DNA from: Candidatus Portnoybacteria bacterium CG_4_9_14_3_um_filter_43_11
GTDB taxonomy: Bacteria; Patescibacteriota; Minisyncoccia; Portnoybacterales; UBA2143
Length of the DNA stretch: 36,998 nt
NCBI GenBank assembly: GCA_002791035.1
Contig: PFWG01000009.1
Location: 1-36,998 of the forward strand
Reading direction: 5' to 3'
Every line of letters starts with the position of its first letter. Positions within the stretch are counted from its first letter, which is position 1. The position numbers were made by a program, and so were the translations under genes. The notes below the pieces were generated by a model that was given only the letters and a program-made list of their open reading frames with translations, had not been told where the DNA came from and did no database searches. This document shows, piece by piece, positions 4,130 to 24,573 of the stretch.

Positions 4130-5884
4130 TTATTTCTTTTTCTCGATTTCGTCTTTTATTTTCCCAACAAATTTATTTACTTTTACTGGGCCTAGATCGC
4201 CCTTTTTTCTATCTCGGACGGCGACTAATTTGGCCTTTTGCTCTTTTTCCCCCACAATCAAAAGATAGGGGATTTTTTGCAGTTCTCCGTGGCGGATTTT
4301 CCGGCCTAAGGTTTCGTCGCTGTCGTTTAATTCCGTCCGGATATTTTCTTCTTTTAAGCGCTTGGCAACTTTCTCGGCGTAAGCGTTAAATTTTTGGCTG
4401 ATGGGAATAATCTGGGCTTGGACCGGGGAGAGCCAGACCGGAAAGGCGCCGGCGTAGTGTTCTATCAGAAAAGCCATCGTTCTTTCCAGACAGCCGATTG
4501 ACGAGCGATGAATAGCCATCGGTCTTTTTTTGTTGCCTTTTTCATCAATATAGGTCAGGTCAAATTTTTCGGGCAAATCAAAATCAATTTGGACGGTAAA
4601 GGCGGTCTCTTCTTTGCCGTTGACATTTCTCAATTGAATGTCCAGTTTGGGTCCGTAAAAAGCCGCTTCTCCTTCCGCCTCCGCATATTTGGTTTTTATC
4701 TTATCTAATATCTTTTTCATTTGCGCCTGGGTTTCTTTCCATTCTTTCGGCTTGTTGACATATTTTTTCTTGTCTTTCGGGTCCCACTTGGAGAATCTAT
4801 ACCAGTAGTCGTCAATGCCAAATGTTTTCATAACATATTCTATTAATTCCAAGACCCCTTTAAATTCTTCTTCAACCTGGTCGGGACGGCAAATAATATG
4901 AGCGTCAGCCAAAGAAAAGGCCATTACTCGAATCAGTCCGGATAGTTCTCCTGATTGTTCTTTGCGGTACTGTTTGGCGATTTCGGCGTATCTCAAAGGC
5001 AGTTCGCGATAACTTCTCGGCCGGGAAGCGTAAATCATAAACTGATGCGGACAGGTCATCGGCCGAAGAACATATTCTTCACCGTCAATATTCATCGGCG
5101 GATACATATTGTCTTGGTAGTGCTGCCAATGGCCGGATTTTTTATATAATTCCACTTTGGCCATATCGGGAGTATAGGTTCGCAGATATCCTCTTTTGGT
5201 TTCTTCGTCTGTGATGAACCTTTCCAGCTCCTGTCTGATAATCGCGCCCTTGGGAGTCAATAGCGGAAGTCCCTTGCCGACCAGGTCGGAAAAAACGAAC
5301 AAGTCCAGTTCTTTGCCCAACTTGCGGTGGTCTCTTTTTTCGGCCTCGGCCTGTTGGTTGAGATAATCTTTTAGTTCTTTTTCGGTGGCAAAAGCGACGC
5401 CGTAGACGCGGGTAAGCATTTTGTTTTTTTCGTTTCCCCGCCAGTAAGCGCCGGCGATTTTAGTCAGCTTAAACGCCTTGGGATTGATTTCTTTAGTTAA
5501 TTTGACATGAGGGCCTTTACATAAATTCTCAAACCAATCGGACCGGTAAAAGCTAACCTTTTTTTCACCGGCCTTTTTTAATTCTCTTATCACCTCGCTT
5601 TTATACGGGTCTTTTTTGTAGAGTTTTAGGGCCTCGCTAAAACTCATATTATGCTGTTCAAATCTAATGTTTTGCTTAATTAATTCCTTAATCCGTTTTT
5701 CCAATTTGGGCAGCAGTTCCGGCGAAATCGGTTCCGGCAGGCCGTAATCCTGATAAAAACCGTTTTCTATGGCTGGTCCGACGCCTAAACCTGCTTCAGG
5801 ATATATTTCCATAATCGCCATGCTCATCAGATGAGACAAAGAATGGCGTATTCTTTCTAATTGCGGTTCTTCTTTTTGAGGCAT
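4130..5884 (-). CDS. thrS: Threonyl-tRNA synthetase lacking the N-terminal TGS domain
   Basis: 584 aa. It begins at the editing-domain HxxxH motif (RHSLSHLM). Class II core blocks are present (FYRSDWFENLCKGPH, RPMTCPHQ, ELPLRYAEIAKQYRKEQSGELSGLIRV) together with a C-terminal anticodon-binding domain. Confidence 0.93.
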   Translation of the reverse strand: MPQKEEPQLERIRHSLSHLMSMAIMEIYPEAGLGVGPAIENGFYQDYGLPEPISPELLPKLEKRIKELIKQNIRFEQHNMSFSEALKLYKKDPYKSEVIRELKKAGEKKVSFYRSDWFENLCKGPHVKLTKEINPKAFKLTKIAGAYWRGNEKNKMLTRVYGVAFATEKELKDYLNQQAEAEKRDHRKLGKELDLFVFSDLVGKGLPLLTPKGAIIRQELERFITDEETKRGYLRTYTPDMAKVELYKKSGHWQHYQDNMYPPMNIDGEEYVLRPMTCPHQFMIYASRPRSYRELPLRYAEIAKQYRKEQSGELSGLIRVMAFSLADAHIICRPDQVEEEFKGVLELIEYVMKTFGIDDYWYRFSKWDPKDKKKYVNKPKEWKETQAQMKKILDKIKTKYAEAEGEAAFYGPKLDIQLRNVNGKEETAFTVQIDFDLPEKFDLTYIDEKGNKKRPMAIHRSSIGCLERTMAFLIEHYAGAFPVWLSPVQAQIIPISQKFNAYAEKVAKRLKEENIRTELNDSDETLGRKIRHGELQKIPYLLIVGEKEQKAKLVAVRDRKKGDLGPVKVNKFVGKIKDEIEKKK

Positions 5885-5905
5885 AGTTTTTTATTAATCT
5901 GTAAA

Positions 5906-6373
5906 TTAGATACGATTACGGGCGAATCGTGCACCAACCACTTTCATTAGGAGCGTTTCCAGGACAGTTCGTTCCTTGACCGCTCGGCTCCATATTGAAT
6001 TGAAGAATAAAAGTTGAGCCACATCGGAGGTATATTTATAGACCAAATTTGGCGTTCCTGAATCCTGAAGCGGGTCCAGTGGCGTTTTTGAGAGATAATC
6101 TGGTTCTAAACCGGAAATAAAATCTGGACCGACAAGAGGAAGATGGCTATAATCACTGTCGCCGCCATCATTATTATCAATGGGATAGCTTTGATAGCCG
6201 TCATTATACAGATTCAAGGCAGTCATAATCTGGAGTATATCGCTCATTCTTCTCTTGTTTCTGGCGTCCCTTTTGACCTTAGTTAAGCTGGCTAAGGACA
6301 AGGAGGCCAGAATTCCAATAATAGCGACGACAACCAACAATTCAATTAAGGTAAACCCTCTTTTCTTGTTCAT
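5906..6373 (-). CDS. Type IV pilin / pseudopilin-like protein (prepilin N-terminal methylation motif)
   Basis: The N-terminus MNKKRGFTLIELLVVVAIIGILASL is a class III signal peptide with G|FTLIE. The C-terminal part is divergent. Confidence 0.8.
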   Translation of the reverse strand: MNKKRGFTLIELLVVVAIIGILASLSLASLTKVKRDARNKRRMSDILQIMTALNLYNDGYQSYPIDNNDGGDSDYSHLPLVGPDFISGLEPDYLSKTPLDPLQDSGTPNLVYKYTSDVAQLLFFNSIWSRAVKERTVLETLLMKVVGARFARNRI

Positions 6374-6381
6374 TCCTTGTT

Positions 6382-9300
6382 CTACTCTAATACCTTAACA
6401 CTCTCGCACAGGATTTTCAAGTTTTCGTCGCGATCGCTCAGCCGCCCGCTGACTAAAACGATTTTGTCTTCTTGCCAGGCCGGCGCGGTCTGCTCTAAGA
6501 CCTTCGGGAAAACAATGGTTTCAAACCGGCCGGTCAGGTCCTCAATTTCAACAAAAAGCATCGGCTGGCCGTTGCGGGTGTTGATTTTTTTTATTCGGTT
6601 GATTATCCCGCCGATTTTTATCCGACGGCCGGACTGATTTCTTGAAATCTGTCGGTAGGAAGTAGTCAGTTTTTCCAGTTTTTTGCGGTATCTCTCCAGC
6701 GGATGCTCGGAGATATAAAGGCCAAGGAGTTCTTTTTCCCAAGCCAGCATTTCATTTTTATTGGCTGGCGCGACTGACGGAAGCGCAAAAGACGGAATGG
6801 CAACATTGGTTTCGGCGCCGAATAAACTGACTTGGCCGCTTTGCCTGGCGCGTTGGGTTTCTCTGGCCAAAGAGAGCATTTGTTCCATGCCGGCCAAGAG
6901 TTGATTTCTTTCTCCAAAGCCGTCCAAAGCGCCGCATTTGACTAAACTTTCCAGCGATTTTTTATTGAGGTCTTTTGACTCTACCCGTTCAATAAAATCA
7001 GCGATTGACTGGTATGGTCCATTGGTCTTTCTTTCGTTGACGATGGCAGAAACGATGTTATGGCCGACATTTTTAACGGCATTAAGGCCGAAACGAATAG
7101 TCATATTGCCGGCTTTGGTAAAGTCGCAGTCGCTTTCGTTGGCGCTGGGGGGCAGGACTTTTATTCCCATTTGTTTGCACTCATCTACCAAAAAGGCGAT
7201 TCGCTCAATGTCGTTTTGCTCGGAAGTCATCAGCGCCGCCATAAACTCGGTTGGAAAATGAGATTTGAGATATGCGGTCTGATAGCCAATAAGGGCGTAG
7301 CAGACAGAATGGGCTTTATTGAATCCATACTGGGCAAATGGTTCAATTGTTTGCCAGATTTTGACGGCGGTTTTTTTCTCCAGCCCATTGGTGACCATGC
7401 CTTCAATCATTTTGTCCTTTTGCTCATCAAGCAGTTTTTTGATTTTCTTGCCGACAGCTTTTCTTAAAACATCGGCTTCGGGCAGGGAAAAACCGGCCAG
7501 GTCTCGGGCAATGCGCATCAATTGTTCTTGATAAACCATTACTCCGTAAGTGTTTTCAAGAATTGGCTTCAGTTTTGGATGGAGATACTCAATTTCTCTC
7601 AGTCCGTGCTTTCGGGCGATAAATTCCGGGATAAATTCTATTGGGCCCGGCCGATACAAGGCGACGAGAGCGACAATATCTTCAAATTTCGTCGGCTTTA
7701 ATTGTTTAAGGCATCTTTTCATACCTCCGCTGTTATGCACAACAAAACCATTGGCAACGAAGTTATTCCCCGGCGCTTTCATGACAATATCATAAGTTGT
7801 TTCTTTTTTGCCCGGTTTGATTTCTTTGACTTCAAGAAATTTAAAGCTTCTTTTAGTAGGAATGATAGGACATTCCCACTTAACTAGGTTTTTGTATTTG
7901 ATGGATAATTCCGCGAATTTTGTGGCGCTAATTAAAACGAAATTATATTGAGGGTATTGTTTTTGGAATAATTCCATCTTTTTTTGGTCCAACTCATGAA
8001 GCCATCCCTTAATTTCGTAGAAAGTGTTGGTATTCTTGACATAAAAGTCCGGAGTATAGTGAAGAGTTTCGCCACCGCTATTTTTTAATTCGAATGTTTT
8101 TGATTCGTATTCATATTCAACTTTATAGAGATTTAAAATTCTGGCAAAATCGGCTTCCCAATTAGAACGGACATAATGACCTAAATCTTTCCGGTACCCC
8201 CCTTTTCTATGCGGGGACTTTCTGCCAAACATTGGATTATTTTCTCCTCTAAATCTTTCGGATAATTTCTTTTTTATTTCCTTTGACTTCTTTATTCCGT
8301 AGAAGTCATCAAATGTTCTTCCTAATAAGGCCTTAGAAATTTTCTGACCGGTGTGTTGTAAAATTAAACTGGTTTCTTTTGTGAGTCCTTGATTCCATGG
8401 AGTTCCTCCTTTTTCATAAAATATCTTTCTGGCCCTAGAAATTTTTTCTCTTGATTTTGGTTTACTTGGATTTCTATAAAAAGTGGCGGAGCATTTGTAA
8501 CAGAAATTACTTTTTCCTTCTTTTTGTCCGCTTATTTGTTTCCTGCAACTTTGGCAAGTGTTATAAACTAAGTGTTTTGCTTTTGATTTTATTAAAATTT
8601 TTTCACCCTCTTTGATATCTTTTAATTGTTTCCATCCATTTTCGGTGAGAAAATAATGATCCGGCGTTGCTTTGATGTACCAATTATTTTCTGCTACTAA
8701 AATGAGGGTTTCTTTCTTGCCGGCGCAGCAAACATCAATAATTTGATTTTTGTGTATCGCGCCTTCGTCTAAGTAAACTGATTCCAATGCCTTTTTGTCT
8801 TTTCGCTTATATAACCCTTTAATCGTAGTGTTAGAAACTATAGTGTCTCCAGATAGACATTCCAATTGAAACACGCCGACGCTATTAGATTGCTGGAGCA
8901 GATGAAAAGTTTTCTTGTCATTAAGGGGGATGTTGTTGATTTCAGCTTCCTGGCCGGACAGTTCCCTAATTTGATTAAGGGTGTTTTGGATAACAGTCAA
9001 GGTTTTTAGGCCTAAAAAATCCATTTTTAGCAGGCCGAGGTCCTCAATGGCGTGCATTTCATATTGAGTGACAACGCTTTCATTATCCTGAGTCGGGTGC
9101 TGGCAGGGGACGGACTTGTCTAGTGGTTCTTTAGTGATGACGACGCCGGCGGCATGAGTAGAAGCGTGGCGGGCGACCCCTTCCAGCTTTTTAGCCATAT
9201 CAATCAGTCGCTTGGTGTTTTCATCCGATTCATAGGCATTATGGAGTTCCTGTGAATCGTTGACAGCGTTTTCCAAAGTAGAACCGAAAGGAATCATTTT

Positions 9301-9738
9301 TGCTACTTGGTCGCAAAAAGCATAGGAATATTCCATTGCCCGACCGACATCGCGGACCGCGGCTCTAGCGGCCATTGTCCCAAAAGTGATAATTTGAGCA
9401 ACATGGTCATGGCCGTATTTTTGCCGGACATAATCAATAACTTCGTCGCGCCGGTCATCGGCAAAATCCAGGTCAATATCCGGCGGAGAGATTCGTGTGC
9501 TTTCAATCTTTTTACGAGGGTTGAATTTGCCTTGAGGCAGTTGAGATGTTATTCCGAGGGCAAACGCGACAAAGCTGTTAATATCGTTTTTATCTCCCTG
9601 TTTTTTCTGTAGATAAAGATTGTGGAAATCATCAATTAACCCGAATTTTTCTATTTGCTCCAATTCAAAACCTAATCTCTTTTGGTCAAGATCTGTTCTT
9701 TGCCGACAAACTTCTTTTAATTCTTCAAATTTTCCCAT
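6382..9738 (-). CDS. dnaE: DNA polymerase III alpha subunit, C-terminal fragment (palm/thumb/fingers/OB), containing an intein
   Basis: Canonical DnaE resumes at NPRKKIESTRISPPDIDLDFADDRRDEVIDYV. Further blocks are HASTHAAGVVI, LLKMDFLGLKTL, VGVFQLE[intein]SGGM, ALYRPGP, YGVMVYQEQ, FNKAHSVCYA and a C-terminal OB region. Confidence 0.9.
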   Translation of the reverse strand: MGKFEELKEVCRQRTDLDQKRLGFELEQIEKFGLIDDFHNLYLQKKQGDKNDINSFVAFALGITSQLPQGKFNPRKKIESTRISPPDIDLDFADDRRDEVIDYVRQKYGHDHVAQIITFGTMAARAAVRDVGRAMEYSYAFCDQVAKMIPFGSTLENAVNDSQELHNAYESDENTKRLIDMAKKLEGVARHASTHAAGVVITKEPLDKSVPCQHPTQDNESVVTQYEMHAIEDLGLLKMDFLGLKTLTVIQNTLNQIRELSGQEAEINNIPLNDKKTFHLLQQSNSVGVFQLECLSGDTIVSNTTIKGLYKRKDKKALESVYLDEGAIHKNQIIDVCCAGKKETLILVAENNWYIKATPDHYFLTENGWKQLKDIKEGEKILIKSKAKHLVYNTCQSCRKQISGQKEGKSNFCYKCSATFYRNPSKPKSREKISRARKIFYEKGGTPWNQGLTKETSLILQHTGQKISKALLGRTFDDFYGIKKSKEIKKKLSERFRGENNPMFGRKSPHRKGGYRKDLGHYVRSNWEADFARILNLYKVEYEYESKTFELKNSGGETLHYTPDFYVKNTNTFYEIKGWLHELDQKKMELFQKQYPQYNFVLISATKFAELSIKYKNLVKWECPIIPTKRSFKFLEVKEIKPGKKETTYDIVMKAPGNNFVANGFVVHNSGGMKRCLKQLKPTKFEDIVALVALYRPGPIEFIPEFIARKHGLREIEYLHPKLKPILENTYGVMVYQEQLMRIARDLAGFSLPEADVLRKAVGKKIKKLLDEQKDKMIEGMVTNGLEKKTAVKIWQTIEPFAQYGFNKAHSVCYALIGYQTAYLKSHFPTEFMAALMTSEQNDIERIAFLVDECKQMGIKVLPPSANESDCDFTKAGNMTIRFGLNAVKNVGHNIVSAIVNERKTNGPYQSIADFIERVESKDLNKKSLESLVKCGALDGFGERNQLLAGMEQMLSLARETQRARQSGQVSLFGAETNVAIPSFALPSVAPANKNEMLAWEKELLGLYISEHPLERYRKKLEKLTTSYRQISRNQSGRRIKIGGIINRIKKINTRNGQPMLFVEIEDLTGRFETIVFPKVLEQTAPAWQEDKIVLVSGRLSDRDENLKILCESVKVLE
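7732..8859 (-). mobile_element. Intein (376 aa) inserted in the DnaE GVFQLE|SGGM motif
   Basis: Block A is CLSGDTIV, with Cys1 at codon 8857-8859. Block B is TPDH. Blocks F/G are TYDIVMKAPGNNFVANGFVVHN followed by +1 Ser, with Asn at codon 7732-7734. Removing it restores the conserved FQLESGGM. The segment is visibly more AT-rich than flanking dnaE. Confidence 0.85.
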
Positions 9739-10696
9739 GATAGAAATTCTTTACGAAGATATATTTACGTTTGAGAAAATAATTTGAGTTACGATAAAGA
9801 TAATCGACGAATTTTTTGACATCTTCCTTGCGAAAAAGGCGCAGTTGATAACTTCCTTTGCCGCCGCCCCTGTCGTCAAATCTTATTTTATGAAAAGTTA
9901 TCTTTAACTGTTTTTCTAACATACTCTTGATTTCTTTGGAAAATTGATAAGAAGCAGAGGACAAAGCGGAACAAAGATAGATATATCTGTTACTTTCCCG
10001 TTTATCTAAATAGAAGCTTCCGTCGCCGTCGTACATTCCTCGCAAAAAGTGTCTTATTAATTTTTCCGGAATTAAGGGAATGGATAATTCTTTCCAGCTT
10101 TTTCTCGGCATTACGCCCAAATTAATTAATGAATTACGCAAATTTTGGTTACTGATTATTAAACAAAAATAATTTTTGTATTGATGGATGGGGCTAGTCG
10201 TCTCTAACAGTTTTCTACAGGTTTCAATCATATCTCTGTCATTTGAGGAGATATTAATGTGATTGCTTTTACTGGAAACACTGCCGTCGGAAAAAATTAT
10301 TCCTAAAAGGTAGGCCTTGCCTTCAGAATCAATTTTATCAAAAAATTTTTCATTAACTTTGTAGGCCCTACTTTTTATATTACATTGATTGCTGCAAAAA
10401 ATTTGATGAGGATTTCTAGATCTATATCCGAATACAGATTTACAGGTCGGACAAATTTTATCGTCGCGATTATATTTACGACGCGCCTTTGATGAGCATT
10501 TTTCGCCGCAATATTTTCGATTGCGAGTTTCTCTTTTATTTACAAACTCTTCGTTGCATTGAAGGCAAATTTTTTGGTAGGCCGCATTTTTTCGGAAACT
10601 ATTATAACAAGCAAGGGAACAAAAGCGGGCGGCAGATTCTCGATAATTGTGTATATAAAACTCTTTTGAGCAGGACTGGCAGATTTTTTTAATCAT
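9725..10696 (-). CDS. Free-standing double-motif LAGLIDADG homing endonuclease with three N-terminal CxxC...FCxxxC zinc modules
   Basis: LAGLIDADG motifs are [13 protein letters not shown] and [14 protein letters not shown]. The N-terminus has three CxxC-x15/16-CxxxC repeats. The ATG at 10696 overlaps the stop of the upstream dnaE fragment. The stop lies 14 nt inside the downstream dnaE fragment. The frame differs from both dnaE fragments. Confidence 0.85.
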
Positions 10697-11909
10697 GAAT
10701 TCCAAAATCCTCTTTATTCAAAAAGTATGTTTCTTTAACACTCAAGAATCTTTCAAAGAGCAAATCATATTTTAGCGGGTCAATGTCGGTAATGTTCAAA
10801 AGATGGGAAACAATGGAGCCGGCGGCGCTTCCTCGGCCCGGGCCGCAGACAATGCCGTTGGACTTGGCCCAGTTGATGAAATCGGCGACGATAAGAAAAT
10901 ACGAGGCGAAACCGGTTTTGGCAATAACTTTCAATTCGTAGTCCAGTCGTTCCAGAACTTTTTCTATCGGGCTGTCAAATTGGCGCTTCTTCAGCCCCTC
11001 CAGGCAAAGTTTTTTGATGTAGTCGTCGGGTGCTTCGCCGGTTGGAACCTCAAACGAAGGTAGCTGGATTTTGCCCAGTTCAAACTCAAAATTGCACGCT
11101 TGAACGATTTTTTGAGTGTTGGCTATCGCTTCGGGGATATGCTTGAAATCCTGAATCATTCTTTCCGTCGACCGAAGGGAAAAATCGTCGTCTTTCATCG
11201 TCAGCCGCCGCTGATCGTCCACTTTTTTGTCGGTCTGAATACTCATCAAGACATCTTGAGCTTCGGCGTCTTCGGGTCTGATGTAGTGAACGTCGTTGGT
11301 GGCGACCAAGGGGATGCCGCATTTTCTTGCCAGTTCAATCATGGCTTTATTGACCGGTTCCTGGCTGGACAGGCCGGGGTGGTGTTGGATTTCAAGGTAA
11401 AAATTTTCCGGACCGAAGATTTTTTGGTATTCCCGGGCGGCTTCCTCCGCTTCCTTTATTTTGCCGGCGGCAATTTTTTTAGGAACTTCGCCGGAAAGGC
11501 AAGCAGTCAGGGCGATCAGACCCTGGCTATGTTTTTTTAGGAGTTCTTTGTCTATGCGCGGCTTGTAATAAAAGCCGTCCAAATACGCCTTGGTGGTCAA
11601 TTTGACCAAATTGCGGTAACCAGTGTCGTTTTTGACTAAAAGAACAAGATGATTGAGTTTGTTGTCAATTCCCGGTTGGCGGTCAGCCATAGTTCGGGGA
11701 GCGAGATACATTTCGCTGCCGATAATGGGACGGATACCTCTTTTTTTGGCCTTCTGATAAAACTCGACTACGCCATACATAGAGCCATGGTCGGTTAAGG
11801 CGATGGAAGACATCTTCAACTCCTGGCACATATCCAAAATCTGGTCTATTTTAGCCAACCCGTCTAACAGAGAGTAATGAGAGTGAACATGTAAATGAGT
11901 GAATTTCAT
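10689..11909 (-). CDS. dnaE: DNA polymerase III alpha subunit, N-terminal fragment (PHP domain to ...FERFL)
   Basis: Contains the PHP motif [15 protein letters not shown], then [38 protein letters not shown] and [34 protein letters not shown]. This is followed by 17 non-DnaE residues and a stop. Confidence 0.9.
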
Positions 11910-11984: not shown

Positions 11985-12017
11985 ATTATATCACTTTTAT
12001 GTCTTTGGGCAAACTGC

Positions 12018-17380: not shown

Positions 17381-17602
17381 CCGTCTTTGCTGTTAATTGG
17401 TTAATTTTATCTTGGCCGGTAAAAGAACTCTGCTGTGGCAGTGGCGGTTCTTCGCTTTGAAAGAAATAGTTTTGCGAACTGGCAGTCATTTTTTAAATCC
17501 GTTTAACTCCATTGTAATTCTTTGGTGTGTCTTGTCAACTCTGTTGGGGGTAGAATCTCTTTTAGAGATTCTACGGAGTTGAAATTGGGGATTGGTCTTC
17601 CA

Positions 17603-18526
17603 CTAGGATTTTGCCAAGTCAGAAAATAAGGTTTTAAGCCCGGCGGTATTTAACCAATAATTCTTTGGATTTTTCTTTAAGTATTTTTTGATTTCTTTTC
17701 TTTGTGTTTTTAGTTTATCGCCAGCCCTGCTGTTGGATATGAGTATATTTGAATAACTGCCGTCTAAAAAAGAGATGTAGGAAATATTTGGAGTTTTTTC
17801 CTTGAGATTTAATATTTCAATTAGTTCTGAAATCTGCTTATCTTGTCCGCCGCCGGAGGTGTTAAGATGTTTTGCTTCTATTAAAAATATCTTATTTTTA
17901 TACCTAATAATCAGGTCTAATTTTTTACCTTGCTTTTTGGCTTTAAGTTTAACTTTTAAATTTTCTTTGACTTTTTTAACGCTGAAAACCTTGGAAAATT
18001 GAGCAACGCATTTGTTTGATTTATTAAATTCTTCCCAAGTTTTAACTTCTTTAAAACCCAATTTCTTTAATATCAAGGTTAGTTTTAATTCGCCGCATTT
18101 TCCTTTCTTGCGAGAGGAATTAGAATCTATTATTGCCTGAATCCATTCTTCGGGGACGAGGTCTCTTAACAATCTTTTAGAAAAGTATCTCCGGGTAATT
18201 TTCTTTATTAAGTCCAAATCTTTTCTGACCGCGCCCAAGGTATTATCGCAGGCGTTAACGAAACAGATAAATTCGGAGCAGTTGGAAAATTCCGATAATG
18301 ATTTTTGCAATTCTTCAAAATACTTGTTGATTATTTTTGGATTTTCTTTTTTCTTTTGAAGAGTTTTAATGGTAGTTAAAATTTCCTTGATCTCTTTTGT
18401 ATTTTTGACATATTTTTTCAGATTAGGATTTTTATTGTCAAAAATATAAAAATTATCCAAAGAAGTTTCTGGATTTTCCTGCGATACTTTAAAGTAATGT
18501 TGATTGTTTTGAATGTTTTTGCTCAT
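17603..18526 (-). CDS. Putative type II restriction endonuclease (PD-(D/E)XK-like)
   Basis: It overlaps and follows the methyltransferase gene. The candidate catalytic pattern is GEL...KKLDLIIRYKNKIFLIEAKH (D...ExK). The gene is very AT-rich and lysine-rich. Confidence 0.55.
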   Translation of the reverse strand: MSKNIQNNQHYFKVSQENPETSLDNFYIFDNKNPNLKKYVKNTKEIKEILTTIKTLQKKKENPKIINKYFEELQKSLSEFSNCSEFICFVNACDNTLGAVRKDLDLIKKITRRYFSKRLLRDLVPEEWIQAIIDSNSSRKKGKCGELKLTLILKKLGFKEVKTWEEFNKSNKCVAQFSKVFSVKKVKENLKVKLKAKKQGKKLDLIIRYKNKIFLIEAKHLNTSGGGQDKQISELIEILNLKEKTPNISYISFLDGSYSNILISNSRAGDKLKTQRKEIKKYLKKNPKNYWLNTAGLKTLFSDLAKS

Positions 18527-19628
18527 AGAGATAATTCAAAAATTTATAGGTAAAATCAAACGAAATTCTTTTGCGGCCGTTATCGCGGAAATTAGTGAGA
18601 AAAAATGAAAAATATTTTTTTCTGTTTTGGTTTAACTTCTGGTTGAATTCCTGTATTAGTTTTTCCTGCTCTTCCACGGGAATTCCCTGGCCGAAAATTA
18701 TATGGGCCATATTTCGAGAAGTATTTTTACCAACAAGCCCTAAAATATTATATCTTCTTATATCTTCAAGTTGTATCTTTTTTCCGTTCTTGCTGTCAAT
18801 GGCTCTTAAGAGCAAGATATTTCTTTCTAAAATATTTCTAACATTTCCATGGATATTATAATTTCTTATTTCCTTTATATTTTGAAACGCCATTTTAGCT
18901 CCATAACTTCCAGATTTCAGAAAATCTTCAGTCAGGCGGAAAATTTCTAAATAATTTTTAGCGCTTTTTATCTGATTAATAAAATTGCCGCCTAACTGCC
19001 AGCCGAATTTTCTTTCTATAGCAAAATTGATTTTTTCTTTTTCTGGGAATATGGCAGCTGATATTTTGTTTTTACCATCAAATCCTTTTTTCTTCTTGTA
19101 ATAAAAAGAAATTACATTATAGGTCGTATCTTTAAAAACTTGTTGGGAAAAAACATTTAACTTAATAATCTTAAACTTTTCAAAAAATAGGTTCCTGATT
19201 TTTTTTGAATTTTCGGCGCAAAGAAAATTTAGAGGAACAATTAAAATTCCTTCTTCGGAATCAAGAATTGAATAGATAGAAACTTGATATAGGTCTTCGA
19301 AAAAGGAGTGTGTGCCGGAAAAGAAATTATCTTTTGTTTTTCCATCGGCTTTATTCTTATGCAGATATGGCGGATTGGTTAAAACAAATTTATATTTCTT
19401 CGGAGAATTGATAGAGTCGTTGTAAAAAACCTTTTTGTTGTCGGTATATTTTTTATCACAGTCAAAGCCGGTGATTTTTTTACATTTATTTTTGCTAGCC
19501 CAACTAAACAAATCCTGATTTCCGGCGAATGGATCAGTAATTTCTTTATTCTTTACGAATGATTCTAGCCCTTGGAGAATATAGTCGGAATTTGTAGTAA
19601 AGAATTGTCCGAGTTGGGCTTTGGTCAT
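18489..19628 (-). CDS. N6-adenine DNA methyltransferase (gamma-type motif order)
   Basis: The motif order is LGQFFTT (motif X-like), then DPFAGNQDL (motif I), then LTNPPY (motif IV). Confidence 0.85.
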   Translation of the reverse strand: MTKAQLGQFFTTNSDYILQGLESFVKNKEITDPFAGNQDLFSWASKNKCKKITGFDCDKKYTDNKKVFYNDSINSPKKYKFVLTNPPYLHKNKADGKTKDNFFSGTHSFFEDLYQVSIYSILDSEEGILIVPLNFLCAENSKKIRNLFFEKFKIIKLNVFSQQVFKDTTYNVISFYYKKKKGFDGKNKISAAIFPEKEKINFAIERKFGWQLGGNFINQIKSAKNYLEIFRLTEDFLKSGSYGAKMAFQNIKEIRNYNIHGNVRNILERNILLLRAIDSKNGKKIQLEDIRRYNILGLVGKNTSRNMAHIIFGQGIPVEEQEKLIQEFNQKLNQNRKKYFSFFLTNFRDNGRKRISFDFTYKFLNYLYEQKHSKQSTLL

Positions 19629-19634
19629 ATCTTT

Positions 19635-19640
19635 ATTATA
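19635..19640 (-). promoter_or_regulatory. Candidate -10 box (TATAAT) 6 nt upstream of the methyltransferase ATG
   Basis: The minus strand reads ctagTATAATaaagatATGacc, with no room for an SD sequence. Confidence 0.4.
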
Positions 19641-19664
19641 CTAGAAAATAGAAATTTTGATAAG

Positions 19665-19692
19665 AAAAAACCGATGCATTAGATCGGTTTTT
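19665..19692. terminator. Bidirectional intrinsic terminator-like hairpin
   Basis: AAAAAA-CCGAT-gcattag-ATCGG-TTTTT lies between the 19715-20251 ORF and the R-M operon. Confidence 0.6.
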
Positions 19693-19714
19693 CTACTTTT
19701 GTTTTAATGGGATG

Positions 19715-20251
19715 TCAATGTTTGTGATTTGCTATAACTTTTCTGAAATCTTTTTTTAATTGTTTTTTTATATTTGGTAATTTGTTTTCGATTTCTTGAA
19801 ATGCTTTATTCCATTGTTGAAAGGAAGTATCTTGGTCTTTTATTGATTGCGACATAATTGATGCTTCTAGATTGCTTAAAATTTGAAGCGAACTATCAAT
19901 AAAAGAATGAATCATTAAAACTGAACTTTTGTCTAGAATTATTTCTTTCTCCCAAAAATAATCTTGTAGACCGAAAAATTTTGTTTTTATCAAGGGGAAT
20001 TCATTTATTTTTTCAGATAAAGATCCCTGATTGGTCTTTGCGCCAATTGTTCTGCTATATTTTTTAAAATCTTTCTCAAGAGCAACGATCTTGCTGTATA
20101 TTTCTTCCAAATAAACAAGTTTTCTATCAAAGATTTTTTCAAATGTATATCTTCTTTGAGAAAAGTAGTATGTCAGAACTGCGGTTAAGAGAATACCAAG
20201 TAATGAGATAACGCTTTGTATAAAACTTGGACCAGATAAGAAATCTTTCAT
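19715..20251 (-). CDS. Hypothetical membrane-anchored coiled-coil protein
   Basis: One N-terminal TM segment (VISLLGILLTAVLTYYF) and a helical remainder. The gene is AT-rich. I recognise no family. Confidence 0.5.
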   Translation of the reverse strand: MKDFLSGPSFIQSVISLLGILLTAVLTYYFSQRRYTFEKIFDRKLVYLEEIYSKIVALEKDFKKYSRTIGAKTNQGSLSEKINEFPLIKTKFFGLQDYFWEKEIILDKSSVLMIHSFIDSSLQILSNLEASIMSQSIKDQDTSFQQWNKAFQEIENKLPNIKKQLKKDFRKVIANHKH

Positions 20252-20300
20252 AGATTGTGTCGTAGAACAAATAACAATACTTTATCTAAATGTGGATATT

Positions 20301-20376
20301 TGGCGGGGACGATGGGAATCGAACCCACGATCTCCTGCGTGACAGGCAGGCGCTTTAACCGCTAAGCTACGCCCCC
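20301..20376 (-). tRNA. tRNA-Asp (GUC), CCA encoded
   Basis: The reverse complement folds as GGGGGCG-UA-GCUU..AAGC-G-CCUGC-CUGUCAC-GCAGG-AGAUC-GUGGG-UUCGAUU-CCCAU-CGUCCCC-G-CCA. The anticodon is GUC. Confidence 0.9.
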
Positions 20377-20380
20377 AAAG

Positions 20381-20454
20381 TAGCGGCGACAGGATTCGAA
20401 CCTGTGACATCGGGCTTATGAGTCCCGCGCTCTAACCAACTGAGCTACGCCGCC
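20381..20454 (-). tRNA. tRNA with CAU anticodon (elongator Met or Ile2), no encoded CCA
   Basis: The reverse complement folds as GGCGGCG-UA-GCUC..GAGC-G-CGGGA-CUCAUAA-GCCCG-AUGUC-ACAGG-UUCGAAU-CCUGU-CGCCGCU-A. It has a G1-U72 wobble and an A31/G39 mismatch. Confidence 0.8.
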
Positions 20455-20455
20455 A

Positions 20456-21145
20456 TCATTTTATTTTTAAATTAGATATTCCTTCAATCCAGCCGTCTAT
20501 TTTTCTTCTTAGTCGAGTTCCTTTCCGGACTTTTATTCTTAGGGTTCCAAAATGTTCGTTATAGTTTTCGTAAATTTTTTTTGTTTCTGTCTTTTTTAAA
20601 CTTGGTTTATTGAACTGCGATAGGGGAATCTCCGTAAGATCGGACCAATATTTTTCTACTTCCTTTACTCTTTTTTTATGAATCTTGTTAATTCCCACTC
20701 TAAGAGAAAACCTATCGATGCTTATTTTGCAACAATTTTTGAACCATTCGAGCATAAAAAGAATCATTTTCGGATCTGAATTAGTAAATCCAACGTCATA
20801 ATTAGACGGAGCAGTATATCCTTCACTCCAATACATTGCTATTCCAGCAACAAGTAAATCTCTTTTATTAAGTTTATCGATTTCTTTAATGCCCTCTTTT
20901 CTTAATAACTCTACTTCCGTTTGTCTTTTTTGTCTTATTTTTTCTACCGCCCTTAATCTTCCTTCGTAACTTCCGGATATTTGTTTTTCCACTAATCGTT
21001 TAATCTGAGTATGCGAAAGTGGTATATCTCTACACCATACGCTAACAGTGCCCTTAGAGATATTTATCTTTTGAGCAATTTCATTGATACTCAATCCTCT
21101 TTTGCGTAACTTTTGCGCTTTAGTCTGTTCCTCTATCTTCGCCAT
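20456..21145 (-). CDS. HTH domain protein with a LAGLIDADG-like C-terminal domain (putative free-standing homing endonuclease or maturase-like)
   Basis: The N-terminal HTH is RGLSINEIAQKINISKGTVSVW. LLVAGIAMYWSEGY resembles a single LAGLIDADG motif. The gene is AT-rich and sandwiched between tRNA genes. Confidence 0.5.
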   Translation of the reverse strand: MAKIEEQTKAQKLRKRGLSINEIAQKINISKGTVSVWCRDIPLSHTQIKRLVEKQISGSYEGRLRAVEKIRQKRQTEVELLRKEGIKEIDKLNKRDLLVAGIAMYWSEGYTAPSNYDVGFTNSDPKMILFMLEWFKNCCKISIDRFSLRVGINKIHKKRVKEVEKYWSDLTEIPLSQFNKPSLKKTETKKIYENYNEHFGTLRIKVRKGTRLRRKIDGWIEGISNLKIK

Positions 21146-22008: not shown

Positions 22009-23070
22009 ATGCTTAATCAACTCAAACAAAACGCGTTGAAAGAGATCGCGGCGACCAAAGAACTCAAGGGCTTGGACGCGGTTTACCGCCGCTATTTGGG
22101 CCGGAAGGGAGAATTGACCAAGGTTTTGCGTTCGCTTAAGGACTTATCCGAAAAAGAACGGAAAGAAACGGGGACGGCGGCCAATGAAATCAAACGGGGA
22201 TTGGAAGAAGCGGTTGGAGAGAAGCGCCGAGAGTTTTTGGCGCCGAGCGGGAAAACCCCGTCTTTATCCCGCTTCGGCGGGACGAGCGGGAAAACCCCGC
22301 CGAGCGGGGTAAATTGGCTTGATGTTACCGCGCCCGGCGTCAAGCCGGCGGTGGGTCATTTGCATCCAATTACCTTGGTCCAAAGGCAAGTTGAAGATAT
22401 TTTCCAATCAATGGGTTTTTCGGTCGTTGACGGTCCGGAAGTGGAAACTGAATACTACAACTTTGACGCTTTAAATATTCCCCCAGGCCATCCGGCTAGG
22501 GATGTATTATCTCTTGGAAGGACTTTTTACTTAAAAAAAGGAGGATTAATGAGGAGTCATACTTCTCCTATGCAAATTCGTTATATGGAGAAACATAATC
22601 CTCCTATTAGGATGATTGTTCCCGGAAAAGTTTTTCGAGTAGAAGCCACCGATTCTTCTCATGAGACAAATTTTTATCAACTTGAGGGGTTAATGATCGG
22701 AAAAGACGTTTCAGTGGCTAATTTTAAAGCAGTAATCCAGGAATTTTTGGAAAATTTCTTCAAAAAATCTATTAAGGTTAAATTAAGACCTTCTTATTTT
22801 CCTTTTGTCGAACCGGGTTTTGAAATAGACATGAGTTGCACTATGTGTGTCGGTAAAGGATGTGCTGCTTGTAAATATTCTGGCTGGATAGAGATGATGG
22901 GAGCTGGAATGATACACCCTAAAGTTTTGAAATCTGGCGGTTTAGATCCAAAAAAATGGCAAGGTTTTGCCTTTGGAATGTCGCTGGATAGGTTAACAAT
23001 GATAAAGTATAGGATTAATGATATTCGTTTATTCCACAGTGGAGATTTAAGATTTCTTCAACAATTCTAA
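22009..23070 (+). CDS. pheS: Phenylalanyl-tRNA synthetase alpha subunit, compositionally mosaic
   Basis: Contains an N-terminal coiled coil, DVTAPG, GHLHPIT, HPARD, SHTSPMQIRYM, FRVEATDSSHETNFYQLEGL, YFPFVEPGFEI and GFAFGMSLDRL. Confidence 0.93.
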   Translation: MLNQLKQNALKEIAATKELKGLDAVYRRYLGRKGELTKVLRSLKDLSEKERKETGTAANEIKRGLEEAVGEKRREFLAPSGKTPSLSRFGGTSGKTPPSGVNWLDVTAPGVKPAVGHLHPITLVQRQVEDIFQSMGFSVVDGPEVETEYYNFDALNIPPGHPARDVLSLGRTFYLKKGGLMRSHTSPMQIRYMEKHNPPIRMIVPGKVFRVEATDSSHETNFYQLEGLMIGKDVSVANFKAVIQEFLENFFKKSIKVKLRPSYFPFVEPGFEIDMSCTMCVGKGCAACKYSGWIEMMGAGMIHPKVLKSGGLDPKKWQGFAFGMSLDRLTMIKYRINDIRLFHSGDLRFLQQF

Positions 23071-23133
23071 TTTTTATTAAACAAAACTCAAAAGGTCGAA
23101 TCCTAAATAATTTAAAAATTAAATATTAATTAA

Positions 23134-23286
23134 ATGAATACAATATCTCAAAAACCTAAAATATTAAAGAAAAATTCGGCTAAAAAACATCCAGAATTTG
23201 GTTTCTGTTTTAGAGGACACGGCGGAAAATCATTAAAGCGAAAGAAAAGCTTAACTGAAAAAATTTTAAAAAAGGTTAATAAGTAG
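23134..23286 (+). CDS. Unannotated 50-codon ORF, candidate RiPP precursor peptide (very basic, single Cys in an aromatic patch)
   Basis: Hand translation gives MNTISQKPKILKKNSAKKHPEFGFCFRGHGGKSLKRKKSLTEKILKKVNK. It is the only ATG-initiated ORF I found on the + strand filling the pheS to radical SAM gap, and it ends 21 nt before the radical SAM start. It is below the ORF-track length cutoff. No SD sequence is present. Confidence 0.4.
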   Translation: MNTISQKPKILKKNSAKKHPEFGFCFRGHGGKSLKRKKSLTEKILKKVNK

Positions 23287-23307
23287 ATAGAATTCCTCCC
23301 ATAGACA

Positions 23308-24573
23308 ATGAAAAATAATTTAGTCAAAATTCGTAAAGAAACGGATTATTATCTGGCGTATTTTAATGAATTAAGAAAACTGATCCCTGTTAATTATATC
23401 GGCTCGATAATCATTGATAGTTTCTTTAATAAAAGGTTTTCTATCCGGGAAATTCAAAATTTCATCAGACAAAACGGCAGAAGATATAATCTTTCGTCAA
23501 AAGATATTCAAATCTTTCTTCGACAAATCCAAGACGAACTTATTTTAGCGCCCCGGGGGAATGTTCGTTTATATCAAAGGGAATTGAGCGCTCCAATAGC
23601 GGTTGAAATTGAGATAACTACCCGATGTAATTTAAGGTGTAAGCATTGTTGTATTAAGAAATATGATAAATTGATGTCAATCAATAGAATTGAACGCATT
23701 TTTAAATTATTAAATGAAAAAAGAGTTTTTGAAATTAGCTTAGCCGGAGGAGAGCCCTTTGTTCATCCTCAAATTCTAGATATTCTTTCGTTATGTGAAC
23801 AATATAACTTCGCTACAATTATAACGACTAACGCTACACTCTTGAGCGAGTCTTTAATTAAAAGATTGGCTGAATTTAAAAATTTGGCTTTCGTCGTAAG
23901 CTTAGAAGGGATTGATAGGACTAACGACATAATCAGAGGGAGGGGCGTTTTCAAAAAAGTAGACCAGGCCGTTAGAAACCTTAAAAAAAACGGTATCTAT
24001 GTTGAAATATCTTCGACAATTACCGAGGAAAACATAGACCGCTGTCGAGAATTAGTGGAATATACTAAGTCCTTAGATATCTTTTGTAATTTCAATTTAT
24101 TTAAACCCTTTAAGAAAGATCATAAACCGTATATTCTTGGGCCCAATAAATATTTTAAATTTATAGAAGATCTATTTGAGGAAAGGAATTTTTCTGGGGC
24201 AAAAGTTAATTTGCCAAACGCCGGGGCTATTTTCGCTTATTTAGAAGGACAAGAAAAATGTAATGAGTGTTATGCGATTATGTGTGCTTTTACGATTGAT
24301 GTGGAAGGGAGTATAGTCCCTTGTCCCGCTCTTCAATCCGCCGGTTATTATGATGAAATCTTCTTGCCGAAATTCGAGGAAAATTTTATAGATATTTGGA
24401 AGAATAATCGACATTTTCAAGATTTTCGCAAAGGAAATTTAAGAGAATGTCGAGCGCGTTCATATATATTCAATAGGAATATAAAAAGGAATGATCCTTA
24501 TGGGATAACTGCTTTTCTGAGATACCAAAAAGCGAAAAGTCAAGAAGTAAAAAATAAGCTACTTAATTCTTAA
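23308..24573 (+). CDS. Radical SAM enzyme with an N-terminal PqqD-like RRE and a C-terminal SPASM/twitch-like Cys cluster (RiPP maturase-like)
   Basis: The CxxxCxxC cluster is TTRCNLRCKHCC and the GGE motif is LAGGEPF. The first ~85 residues (VKIRKETDYYLAYFNELRKLIPVNYIGSIIIDSFFNKRFSIREIQNFIRQ...SKDIQIFLRQIQDELIL) match the PqqD/RRE pattern. The C-terminal Cys pattern is CNECYAIMC-x7-GSIVPC ... C. Confidence 0.85.
   Translation: MKNNLVKIRKETDYYLAYFNELRKLIPVNYIGSIIIDSFFNKRFSIREIQNFIRQNGRRYNLSSKDIQIFLRQIQDELILAPRGNVRLYQRELSAPIAVEIEITTRCNLRCKHCCIKKYDKLMSINRIERIFKLLNEKRVFEISLAGGEPFVHPQILDILSLCEQYNFATIITTNATLLSESLIKRLAEFKNLAFVVSLEGIDRTNDIIRGRGVFKKVDQAVRNLKKNGIYVEISSTITEENIDRCRELVEYTKSLDIFCNFNLFKPFKKDHKPYILGPNKYFKFIEDLFEERNFSGAKVNLPNAGAIFAYLEGQEKCNECYAIMCAFTIDVEGSIVPCPALQSAGYYDEIFLPKFEENFIDIWKNNRHFQDFRKGNLRECRARSYIFNRNIKRNDPYGITAFLRYQKAKSQEVKNKLLNS

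Follow-up and report, generated by a model that had tools for sequence, protein, structure and literature searches.

We have analysed the dnaE locus in a 36,998-nucleotide (nt) stretch of DNA, hereafter the window, from Candidatus Portnoybacteria bacterium CG_4_9_14_3_um_filter_43_11, a member of the Patescibacteriota (contig PFWG01000009.1 of assembly GCA_002791035.1, positions 1 to 36,998 of the forward strand). The gene for the alpha subunit of DNA polymerase III (Pol III) lies here in two parts on the minus strand, with an open reading frame (ORF) for a LAGLIDADG protein between them. The features of the locus, in window coordinates, are as follows.

10689-11909, minus strand: DnaE-N ORF, 406 aa, running from the PHP motif to FERFL plus 17 residues.
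10743-11909, minus strand: DnaE-N extein (aa 1-389), PHP and the beginning of the palm with its nucleotide-binding loop, with the terminus LLFERFL.
10743-11030, minus strand: segment X1 (DnaE-N, about aa 294-389), comprising four helices with the GS loop; the original from which the leader is copied.
10689-10742, minus strand: tail, 17 codons and a TAA stop appended to FERFL.
9725-10696, minus strand: LAGLIDADG gene, a free-standing ORF of 972 nt in another frame, 323 aa.
6382-9738, minus strand: DnaE-C ORF, 1118 aa, a 72-residue leader followed by NPRKKIESTRISPPDIDLDF.
9523-9738, minus strand: leader of DnaE-C (aa 1-72), a conserved four-helix pseudo-repeat of X1 without the GPGRGSAAG loop.
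9496-9522, minus strand: extension NPRKKIEST, which joins the leader to R-I-S-PPDIDLDF and exceeds the canonical NPE by about 6 residues.
6382-9495, minus strand: DnaE-C extein, with PDIDLDF, KMDFLGL, thumb, fingers, HhH and OB fold, and an intein inside it.
7732-8859, minus strand: intein (aa 294-669 of DnaE-C), GVFQLE/C...VVHN/SGGM, with NUMOD3 and a T7-endonuclease-I-like domain.
11985-12012, minus strand: promoter-like site 5' of DnaE-N, TTGCCC-16-TATAAT with TG, a consensus match only.

The three ORFs overlap in series. The endonuclease ATG at 10696 lies within cATGATTAA, of which the TAA is the DnaE-N stop, and the endonuclease stop at 9725 falls 14 nt inside the DnaE-C ORF. Between the three ORFs the minus strand shows no terminator-like site, as would fit a single transcript. 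Pfam assigns to DnaE-N a PHP domain (1.1e-59) and profile positions 2-97 of DNA_pol3_alpha, to the middle ORF two stretches of LAGLIDADG_3 (1.2e-18), and to DnaE-C DNA_pol3_alpha profile positions 69-260 followed by finger, HHH_6 and OB domains; the two DnaE pieces thus overlap at profile positions 69-97. When aligned to intact canonical DnaE, as the original prediction had proposed, both pieces match, at 52% identity for the N piece (protein P0166, aa 1-388) and 43% for the C piece. Across both pieces the DnaE/Pol III alpha domain set is complete, with the GS loop in the N piece and PDIDLDF and KMDFLGL in the C piece. The gene does not read as a single polypeptide, for a 972-nt ORF in another frame separates the stop from the start, in at least 22 contigs and more than 10 lineages.

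The ORF coordinates, overlaps and sequence statements of the original prediction all hold on re-reading the window. Its concern that the frame changes might be assembly errors is countered by the recurrence of the same three-ORF arrangement, with identical sequence, in no fewer than 22 independent contigs drawn from separate metagenome assemblies of ENA and JGI, which excludes such an error. The surroundings are chromosomal, with ligA, gatCA, thrS, map, adk, secY and ribosomal protein genes. A second intact dnaE, which the prediction had named as grounds for rejecting a two-piece polymerase, was not found by tblastn of canonical DnaE within the 37-kb window, the region to which that result applies.

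We interpret this locus as a dnaE gene in pieces, in which the alpha subunit would be made as two polypeptides of one operon that reassemble non-covalently, and we put the probability of this interpretation at roughly 0.72. On that interpretation it would be a genuine genes-in-pieces replicase of the kind represented by nrdA/mobE of phage Aeh1, but in a cellular dnaE, with assembly and activity predicted.

The arrangement extends to relatives (we refer to loci and proteins by L and P numbers). N piece, endonuclease gene and C piece follow one another with the same start and stop overlaps in L012, L014/L087, L015, L127 and L148, and the three-ORF layout recurs in lineages only 55-80% identical. 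In two loci the endonuclease gene has been lost as such while N piece, tail, leader and C piece are intact: in L011 it is frameshifted and in L013 unrelated small ORFs replace it. The replacement gap of L013 also holds a weak tmRNA/tRNA-like Rfam match (8031-8099, minus strand; 24.8 bits, below the gathering score). In 86 related DnaEs, including one with 88% identity to a split allele, the canonical sequence FERFLNPERISMPDIDLDF is uninterrupted. Contiguous canonical relatives, together with a LAGLIDADG ORF between halves on the same strand, are features of the genes-in-pieces type.

We also scanned metagenome contigs with a degenerate DNA pattern for FERFL, 33 nt (11 codons) and DFG. Eight of the 119 loci listed were relevant, among them two in which the halves are fused (L033 and L073, described below) and an endonuclease-free split, L131 (2295-4375), where the halves lie 45 nt apart downstream of a large repeat-containing ORF. 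In a further split dnaE, L082 (5105-9839), a DNA methyltransferase-like gene and another ORF stand between the halves. L082 and L131 are low-GC (guanine plus cytosine) contigs, possibly phage, with longer tails that end in a common G-[GS]-[VI]-[DS]-R-Y followed by the stop.

Some candidate splits were discarded. P0030 (FERFLKVGWLT), taken at first for another insertion at the same site, is in fact a canonical gene with a 1-nt frameshift. Among short DnaE fragments (about 430-710 aa, on inspected contigs of 5-280 kb) several are frameshifted or aberrant and others stop within canonical sequence. Two otherwise canonical Parcubacteria dnaE genes are broken by a duplicated MDFLGLKNL... segment (L149, 1935-1972) and by a 1-nt frameshift directly after FERFL (L151, 1255-1290). 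These two breaks are probably assembly or sequencing errors, and some short DnaEs in the data set are thus not real splits.

The residues added at the break are themselves conserved. Of the 120 best homologues of the N piece, 22 are Patescibacteria proteins of about 400-415 aa, 55-80% identical to that of the window, all of which end in the same tail directly after FERFL. The tail consensus, S-V-x-E-K-Y-F-I-x-K-E-D-F-G-I, holds in at least 22 diverged Patescibacteria DnaE-N proteins, with SVNEKYFISKEDFGIND, SVSEKYFVTKEDFGIL and SASEKYCVSKKDFGIYD as examples. The original prediction had called these 17 residues unrelated; they are no random read-through, being a conserved peptide in 22 diverged N pieces.

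The leader is likewise present and alignable in all split loci compared, with the pattern M..L..L+.IC....dLdQ+RL..EL.qIe+.gL.D.F..LY..KKQG..N.INS.vAfALgITS..P.G.F.P.++. Leaders are collinear with a hidden Markov model (HMM) of 70 canonical DnaEs (E 1e-6 to 1e-4 per comparison), and the alignment has a gap of 10 residues exactly over the GPGRGSAAG loop. Comparison by hhalign of the leader alone with the canonical upstream segment alone gave a probability of 94% (E 1.2e-7, 66 columns), rising to 98.4% (E 6e-14) when the PDIDLDF anchor was added, and in tblastn residues 297-602 of canonical P0166 align from window position 9720 downward, straight through the leader. Profile methods were required, as BLASTP of the leader against the N piece gave no match. 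It is thus statistically supported that the leader is a copy, at the level of sequence, of the DnaE helices that precede FERFL, with the GS loop lost. The prediction of a duplicated break region without GPGRGSAAG therefore stands, though not its description as decayed, for the copy is conserved and selected. A phmmer search with the leader against a 50%-clustered library returned 8 matches, of which 3 are clear C pieces; since C pieces fall into the same clusters as canonical DnaEs, this count says nothing on prevalence.

On the downstream side the junction is less exact than the predicted FERFL/NP break. The NP after the leader varies among split alleles (NP, SP, DP, KP or TP) and the spacer from NP to PDIDLDF is about 6 residues above canonical length, so that canonical sequence resumes near R-I-S-x-PDIDLDF. 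Nei-Gojobori counts between split loci gave the following proportions of nonsynonymous differences (pN): tail 0.13-0.28, leader 0.17-0.26, exteins 0.13-0.27 and endonuclease 0.27-0.30. The proportion of synonymous differences (pS) is saturated, at 0.6-0.85. The large excess of pS over pN indicates that tail, leader, exteins and endonuclease are all kept as proteins. Catalytic motifs are intact and purifying selection is strong in both halves across at least 10 diverged lineages. These sequence comparisons support the view that tail and leader are conserved, selected peptides of one insertion module.

The module also exists in unbroken form. In L033 and L073, distant DnaE genes (36-38% identical), the tail, a linker of 12-18 residues and the leader are in one frame, and homology search revealed a fused family (P0129-P0138, P0141 and P0145) with an insert of 103-110 residues between FERFL and PDVDLDF. 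The nearest relatives of this family are canonical DnaEs. One member lies within a phage-like replication module, with RecA, a primase, a RecD-like helicase, RuvC and many ORFs without Pfam domains. Searching phage genomes by tblastn with the module alone gave no match; longer queries in most cases matched the leader with the canonical segment that ordinary phage DnaEs contain.

An AlphaFold2 (AF2) model of the fused P0131, built with an 81-row alignment, has a mean predicted local distance difference test score (pLDDT) of 92.5, with 74-95 per 10-residue block in the module and 79-95 in all blocks but one. A Foldseek comparison assigns it the Pol III alpha fold (template modelling scores 0.75-0.87). 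The tail forms a beta strand (393-398) and a short helix (401-404), both at pLDDT of about 86-92. A coil (405-417) follows where split forms have their stop and start, and then come the leader helices (418-426, 433-446, 449-458 and 471-475) and an extra strand (490-495, equivalent to RKKIES of the window) directly before the catalytic strand (504-508). The concatenated N and C pieces of the window, modelled by AF2 with the intein removed, gave a mean pLDDT of 88.5 and a predicted template modelling score of 0.83. Here the leader forms four helices that mirror the four of the preceding segment X1 (294-308, 315-332, 335-350 and 361-370).

From these models a mechanism of assembly can be proposed. 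The cut falls within the palm, with PHP and the nucleotide-binding loop contributed by the N piece and PDIDLDF, thumb, fingers, HhH and OB by the C piece. Between FERFL and R-I-S-PPDIDLDF there is an insertion module of some 100 residues, and the cut lies in its coil. The module is made up of the tail (a beta strand and a D-F-G turn), a linker, the four-helix pseudo-repeat and a second extra strand, from which the chain passes into the catalytic strand. When the gene is split, the tail ends the N piece, and the helices and second strand open the C piece. Because the two extra strands bracket an insertion in what is a three-residue loop of canonical DnaE, they must adjoin, and we propose that the strand of the tail forms a pair with that of the C piece and lies packed against the leader helices. 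The module would then serve as a built-in docking device, much as the tails do in NrdA-a and NrdA-b of phage Aeh1. The LAGLIDADG gene sits exactly in the linker, translationally coupled to both halves. We infer in this way the physical assembly of the pieces, polymerase activity, the strand pairing, and the activity and target of the endonuclease.

The middle ORF is predicted to encode a LAGLIDADG homing endonuclease with both motifs in one chain. Residues 1-110 comprise three zinc-ribbon repeats of the form CxxC...C..C, and residues from about 112 to 323 the double-motif LAGLIDADG core. In orthologues of 57-58% identity all 12 cysteines are invariant, as are both LAGLIDADG motifs (KAYLLG..FSDG and HF.RG..DGDGS). 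Full-length relatives with zinc ribbon and core (about 25% identity) occur in Staphylococcus phages, which account for 91 of the 123 matching records; where annotated they are mostly called endonuclease or intron-encoded endonuclease (for example L152, phage StAP1, 2501-3469).

A related LAGLIDADG ORF is found at the same place in dnaE of 'Candidatus Clostridium radicumherbarum' (L028), which has two Rfam-significant group I introns (4439-6030). The first follows FER/FLNP and the second MPD/IDSDF, with an 11-codon mini-exon, FLNPDRVSMPD, between them, and the second contains a free LAGLIDADG ORF 32% identical to aa 101-320 of the window endonuclease. This stretch of dnaE is thus a hot spot for the endonuclease family. 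More distant relatives of the core, without zinc ribbons, lie beside or within tRNA clusters in metagenome-assembled genomes mostly labelled Candidate Phyla Radiation (CPR) (L017, L019-L024 and L026). The match is at about 5001-5690 in most of these, at 2489-3112 in L023 and at 3915-4562 in L024; a tRNA gene begins 10-80 nt 3' of it in L017, L019, L022, L024 and L026, and L022 has a group I intron (2519-2754) between tRNA genes.

Because the split remains where the endonuclease gene has decayed or been replaced, the endonuclease is, as judged from these loci, a selfish passenger and not a polymerase cofactor. Nor can it be named as the maker of the split, given that the module is also fused in phage DnaEs and is split without an endonuclease in L131; it may occupy and mobilise a pre-existing permissive linker.

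The distribution of split alleles is patchy. When 109 N exteins are placed on a neighbour-joining tree, the split alleles, 22 in number, lie scattered among canonical ones, and Fitch parsimony requires 17 changes between the split and canonical states (bootstrap range 13-20; label-shuffle null 16-22). Most split alleles are nearer to a canonical allele than to any other split allele. An example is the split P0020, which is 88% identical to canonical P0064 and 72% to its nearest split allele. At the DNA level this pair shows 82-94% identity per 100 nt across the first 900 nt; the value falls to 66-75% over the final 270 nt ahead of the junction and is 65-75% for 345 nt or more beyond it, the pattern expected of recombination at the cassette. 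Cassette and extein identities are incongruent between loci, at 74% and 60% (N extein), respectively, for L011-L014 and 59% and 72% for L011-L012. That the split state was gained or lost many times, at least 13, is well supported by these sequence data. Spread by homing of the whole tail-endonuclease-leader unit is the most likely explanation but is unproven, and the patchy distribution and one mosaic allele pair are indirect indications of site-specific cleavage and homing by the endonuclease.

Under such a scheme tail, endonuclease gene and leader would be spread and lost as a unit among dnaE alleles of Patescibacteria and the related phage dnaE, canonical FERFL/NPER alleles being cleaved and then repaired from a cassette-bearing allele. 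The flanking duplication could, speculatively, have arisen by Campbell-type integration of a circle carrying the endonuclease gene and an internal dnaE fragment; an equally speculative alternative is an in-frame tandem duplication whose junction was broken later. Taken further, the tail, LAGLIDADG gene and leader may form a single mobile intervening element of an undescribed kind, which would bring its own docking peptides, invade CPR and phage replicase genes without splicing and, after loss of the endonuclease, be re-fusable in frame as a permanent palm subdomain. We regard this extension as tentative, at somewhat less than even odds, and hold with the same reserve that one of the docking peptides of such an element would derive from a duplicated piece of the host gene.

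Several points weigh against a two-piece replicase spread in this way. At every locus it is predicted from sequence and modelled structure, and the search for a second dnaE or a polC was confined to the 37-kb window. Strand pairing is read from the geometry of the insertion and not from contacts. In the AF2 model of the window, for which there was almost no alignment depth over the module, the tail and the 469-488 stretch have pLDDT below 50 and the leader helices 55-67. The confident module fold thus comes from the phage homologue, about 37% identical, and to the question of leader disorder raised in the original prediction the window model answers that the leader is helical, though at a pLDDT of only 55-67. 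The tail has no significant similarity to canonical NPERISMPDIDLDF (hhalign E 0.62), and the idea that it is a degenerate copy of that catalytic strand was dropped. As for mobility, the 22 split alleles and their nearest canonical counterparts show no general drop in protein identity near the junction (p = 0.78). A general protein-level signature of co-conversion is unsupported, and the signature that exists rests on the one allele pair. Finally, the N-extein tree is star-like, and the patchiness could partly be phylogenetic noise or ordinary dnaE recombination.

The best-surviving alternative concerns origin. In this account an old module-bearing or two-gene DnaE came first, for example when part of a phage dnaE was duplicated in tandem and in frame; the linker of that DnaE broke later, the endonuclease is a late squatter in the gap, and the module is not its adaptor. 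The fused module-bearing DnaEs without endonuclease are in keeping with such a history, being a sizeable phage-like family, as are the 45-nt junction of L131 and the unrelated genes in the gap of L082 and L013, and the same option has been raised for gene 43 of phages 25 and 44RR (PMC2988022). Against this, in Patescibacteria the module is seen only split, and nearly always with this endonuclease gene or its remnants; the interspersion of module-bearing and canonical alleles calls for transfer of the whole unit, as a homing endonuclease provides; and related LAGLIDADG genes hit the same dnaE hot spot in the Clostridium introns. We consider a late arrival of the endonuclease unlikely, though it is much the strongest of the alternatives, and because it bears on origin alone it is compatible with a two-piece enzyme.

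A second alternative is that the region from tail to leader is an intron of group I, group II or a new type that carries the endonuclease ORF, so that a contiguous DnaE mRNA is produced by splicing. The Clostridium dnaE introns, with their related LAGLIDADG ORF within 11 codons of the site, lend this some plausibility, as do the annotation of full-length endonuclease relatives in Staphylococcus phages as intron-encoded and the abundance of rRNA introns in CPR bacteria (PMC11270868). Rfam nevertheless gives no group I or group II intron signal in the window, with no RF00028 or group II match at E<=10 in positions 9300-10900, nor any intron match in six homologous loci (L011-L014, L131 and L148) at E<=0.1, whereas the same tool detects the Clostridium introns with RF00028 at 82.1 and 65.3 bits. 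Outside the endonuclease ORF there are only 51 + 216 nt, and these are conserved as protein; with synonymous sites saturated, the nucleotide-level conservation that a ribozyme needs is absent. The same peptides are in frame in fused DnaEs of very different GC, where they have a confident protein fold, and merely 45 nt separate the halves of L131. RNA splicing is therefore highly improbable.

It is just as improbable that the split copy is a relic, a pseudogene or an assembly or frameshift error, while another polymerase replicates the genome. Frameshifted or mis-assembled dnaE fragments do occur in the data set (L149 and L151), and the visible genome amounts to 37 kb. On the other side stand the identical sequence in at least 22 independent contigs, the recurrence of layout and start/stop overlaps in lineages 55-80% identical, the intact catalytic motifs with pN far below pS in both halves, and the conserved chromosomal neighbourhood (ligA, gatCA, thrS, map, adk and secY).

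The last alternative is protein trans-splicing, with tail and leader as atypical split intein halves that yield a covalent alpha subunit. The order of N extein, free endonuclease gene and C extein is that of 'fractured genes', which include DnaE loci (PMC2677866). No Pfam Hint or intein match was found on tail or leader by the scan that detects the DnaE-C intein at 2.6e-18. Split inteins with very short N parts exist. At the break, Hint blocks A, B, F and G, Cys/Ser1, a terminal His-Asn and a Cys/Ser/Thr at +1 are all missing as conserved features: the tail may begin with S, A, T, N or G, leaders end in ..G-K/E-F and never in His-Asn, and directly after the leader stands N, S, D, K, T, V, L or M, a position never conserved as Cys, Ser or Thr. 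Inteins, moreover, are all-beta, whereas the leader is alpha-helical and homologous to DnaE helices, and fused forms retain the module as a confident part of the model, which leaves trans-splicing the least probable of the alternatives.

The conclusion that the element at the break is neither intron nor intein is thus supported on sequence grounds, and the original prediction of a free-standing endonuclease gene in a two-piece dnaE is borne out by the negative Rfam and Hint results and by a split that outlives its endonuclease. The intein within DnaE-C, which is complete and was not mentioned in the original prediction, is a separate matter. It gives matches to Intein_splicing (2.6e-18), NUMOD3 (1e-6) and Phage_endo_I (28.2 bits, just below the Pfam cut-off), and its junctions, FQLE/CLSGDT and VVHN/SGG, have Cys1, a terminal His-Asn and a +1 nucleophile. 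Its nested nuclease region thus resembles NUMOD3 and T7-type Phage_endo_I rather than LAGLIDADG or HNH. The intein is missing from the orthologous C pieces of L011-L014, so that the dnaE of the window bears two independent mobile elements.

Elsewhere in the window there are two low-GC islands (17500-21000 and 22500-24500; GC 0.29-0.37, compared with about 0.45 elsewhere). The first adjoins two tRNA genes (20304-20454) and a DpnII-like restriction gene, which differs among otherwise identical contigs, being intact in some and split in others.

If the pieces assemble as proposed, many Patescibacteria replicate with a Pol III alpha severed between the nucleotide-binding loop and the catalytic aspartates, and genes in pieces with docking tails would reach from phages to an essential cellular gene. 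The element could then pass through a life cycle in which it invades, splits the gene while supplying adaptors, loses its endonuclease gene by decay and is finally fused back in frame as a new subdomain, and its module would offer a natural split site and docking device for engineering C-family polymerases. There is also a practical aspect. Among the matches some canonical dnaE fragments are labelled 'partial', whereas the entry for P0037, a split N piece, reads simply DNA polymerase III subunit alpha; such annotation is expected to affect single-copy-marker counts of CPR genomes. Full-text literature searches returned no report of such a split dnaE in CPR bacteria.

To our knowledge, genes in pieces with docking tails have been documented experimentally only for a few T4-like phage enzymes, and we know of no duplicated host-gene segment described for T4-type split genes. 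The closest parallel is nrdA of phage Aeh1, which Friedrich et al. reportedly described in 2007 as split by the free-standing endonuclease gene mobE. The tails that the insertion created on NrdA-a and on NrdA-b are required for activity (Crona et al. 2010, PMC3045599). As in Aeh1, the window has a free endonuclease gene in an essential gene near the active site, without intron or intein and with new flanking tails. Unlike Aeh1, the host here is a CPR bacterial chromosome and a C-family replicative polymerase, the endonuclease is a LAGLIDADG protein with zinc ribbons rather than of the mobE type, and the downstream N-terminal 'tail' is, by profile comparison, a conserved stretch of 72 residues copied from helices of the host protein itself. 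The arrangement here is also old, widespread and patchy over many lineages and is found fused in phages, and its function is predicted.

Other T4-type splits, for which the same logic has been discussed, include genes 39/60 with mobA and the division of gene 43 into 43A and 43B in the Aeromonas phages 25 (with seg43) and 44RR (without an endonuclease) (PMC2988022). Split gp43 resembles our case in that a replicative polymerase is encoded as two genes, with an endonuclease gene in the gap in one instance and an empty gap in a relative, and it poses the same question of whether the endonuclease caused or invaded the split; it differs in being a family B polymerase, where ours is family C, and in being restricted to phages. 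Fractured genes combine a split intein with a free-standing endonuclease gene and include three DnaE loci (Dassa et al. 2009, PMC2677866). They share with the window the order of N half, endonuclease gene and C half on one strand and the dnaE host, but they have the Hint motifs, Cys1, His-Asn and Cys+1 of trans-splicing that were looked for here and are absent. Cyanobacterial DnaE, as cited in one of these sources, is naturally split with a split intein (Wu et al. 1998, via PMC2677866). This too is a Pol III alpha from two genes in a cellular organism, but with another split site, separate loci, covalent joining by the split intein and no endonuclease gene. The Clostridium introns occupy the same dnaE hot spot with a related LAGLIDADG ORF; they have ribozyme cores and are not flanked by any conserved tail or leader in frame, whereas the element of the window lacks both a ribozyme signal and the space to hold a ribozyme. 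The principle is thus known from phages, and what is new is an essential cellular replicase as host, an adaptor derived from the host gene, a broad and patchy distribution, and fused phage forms.

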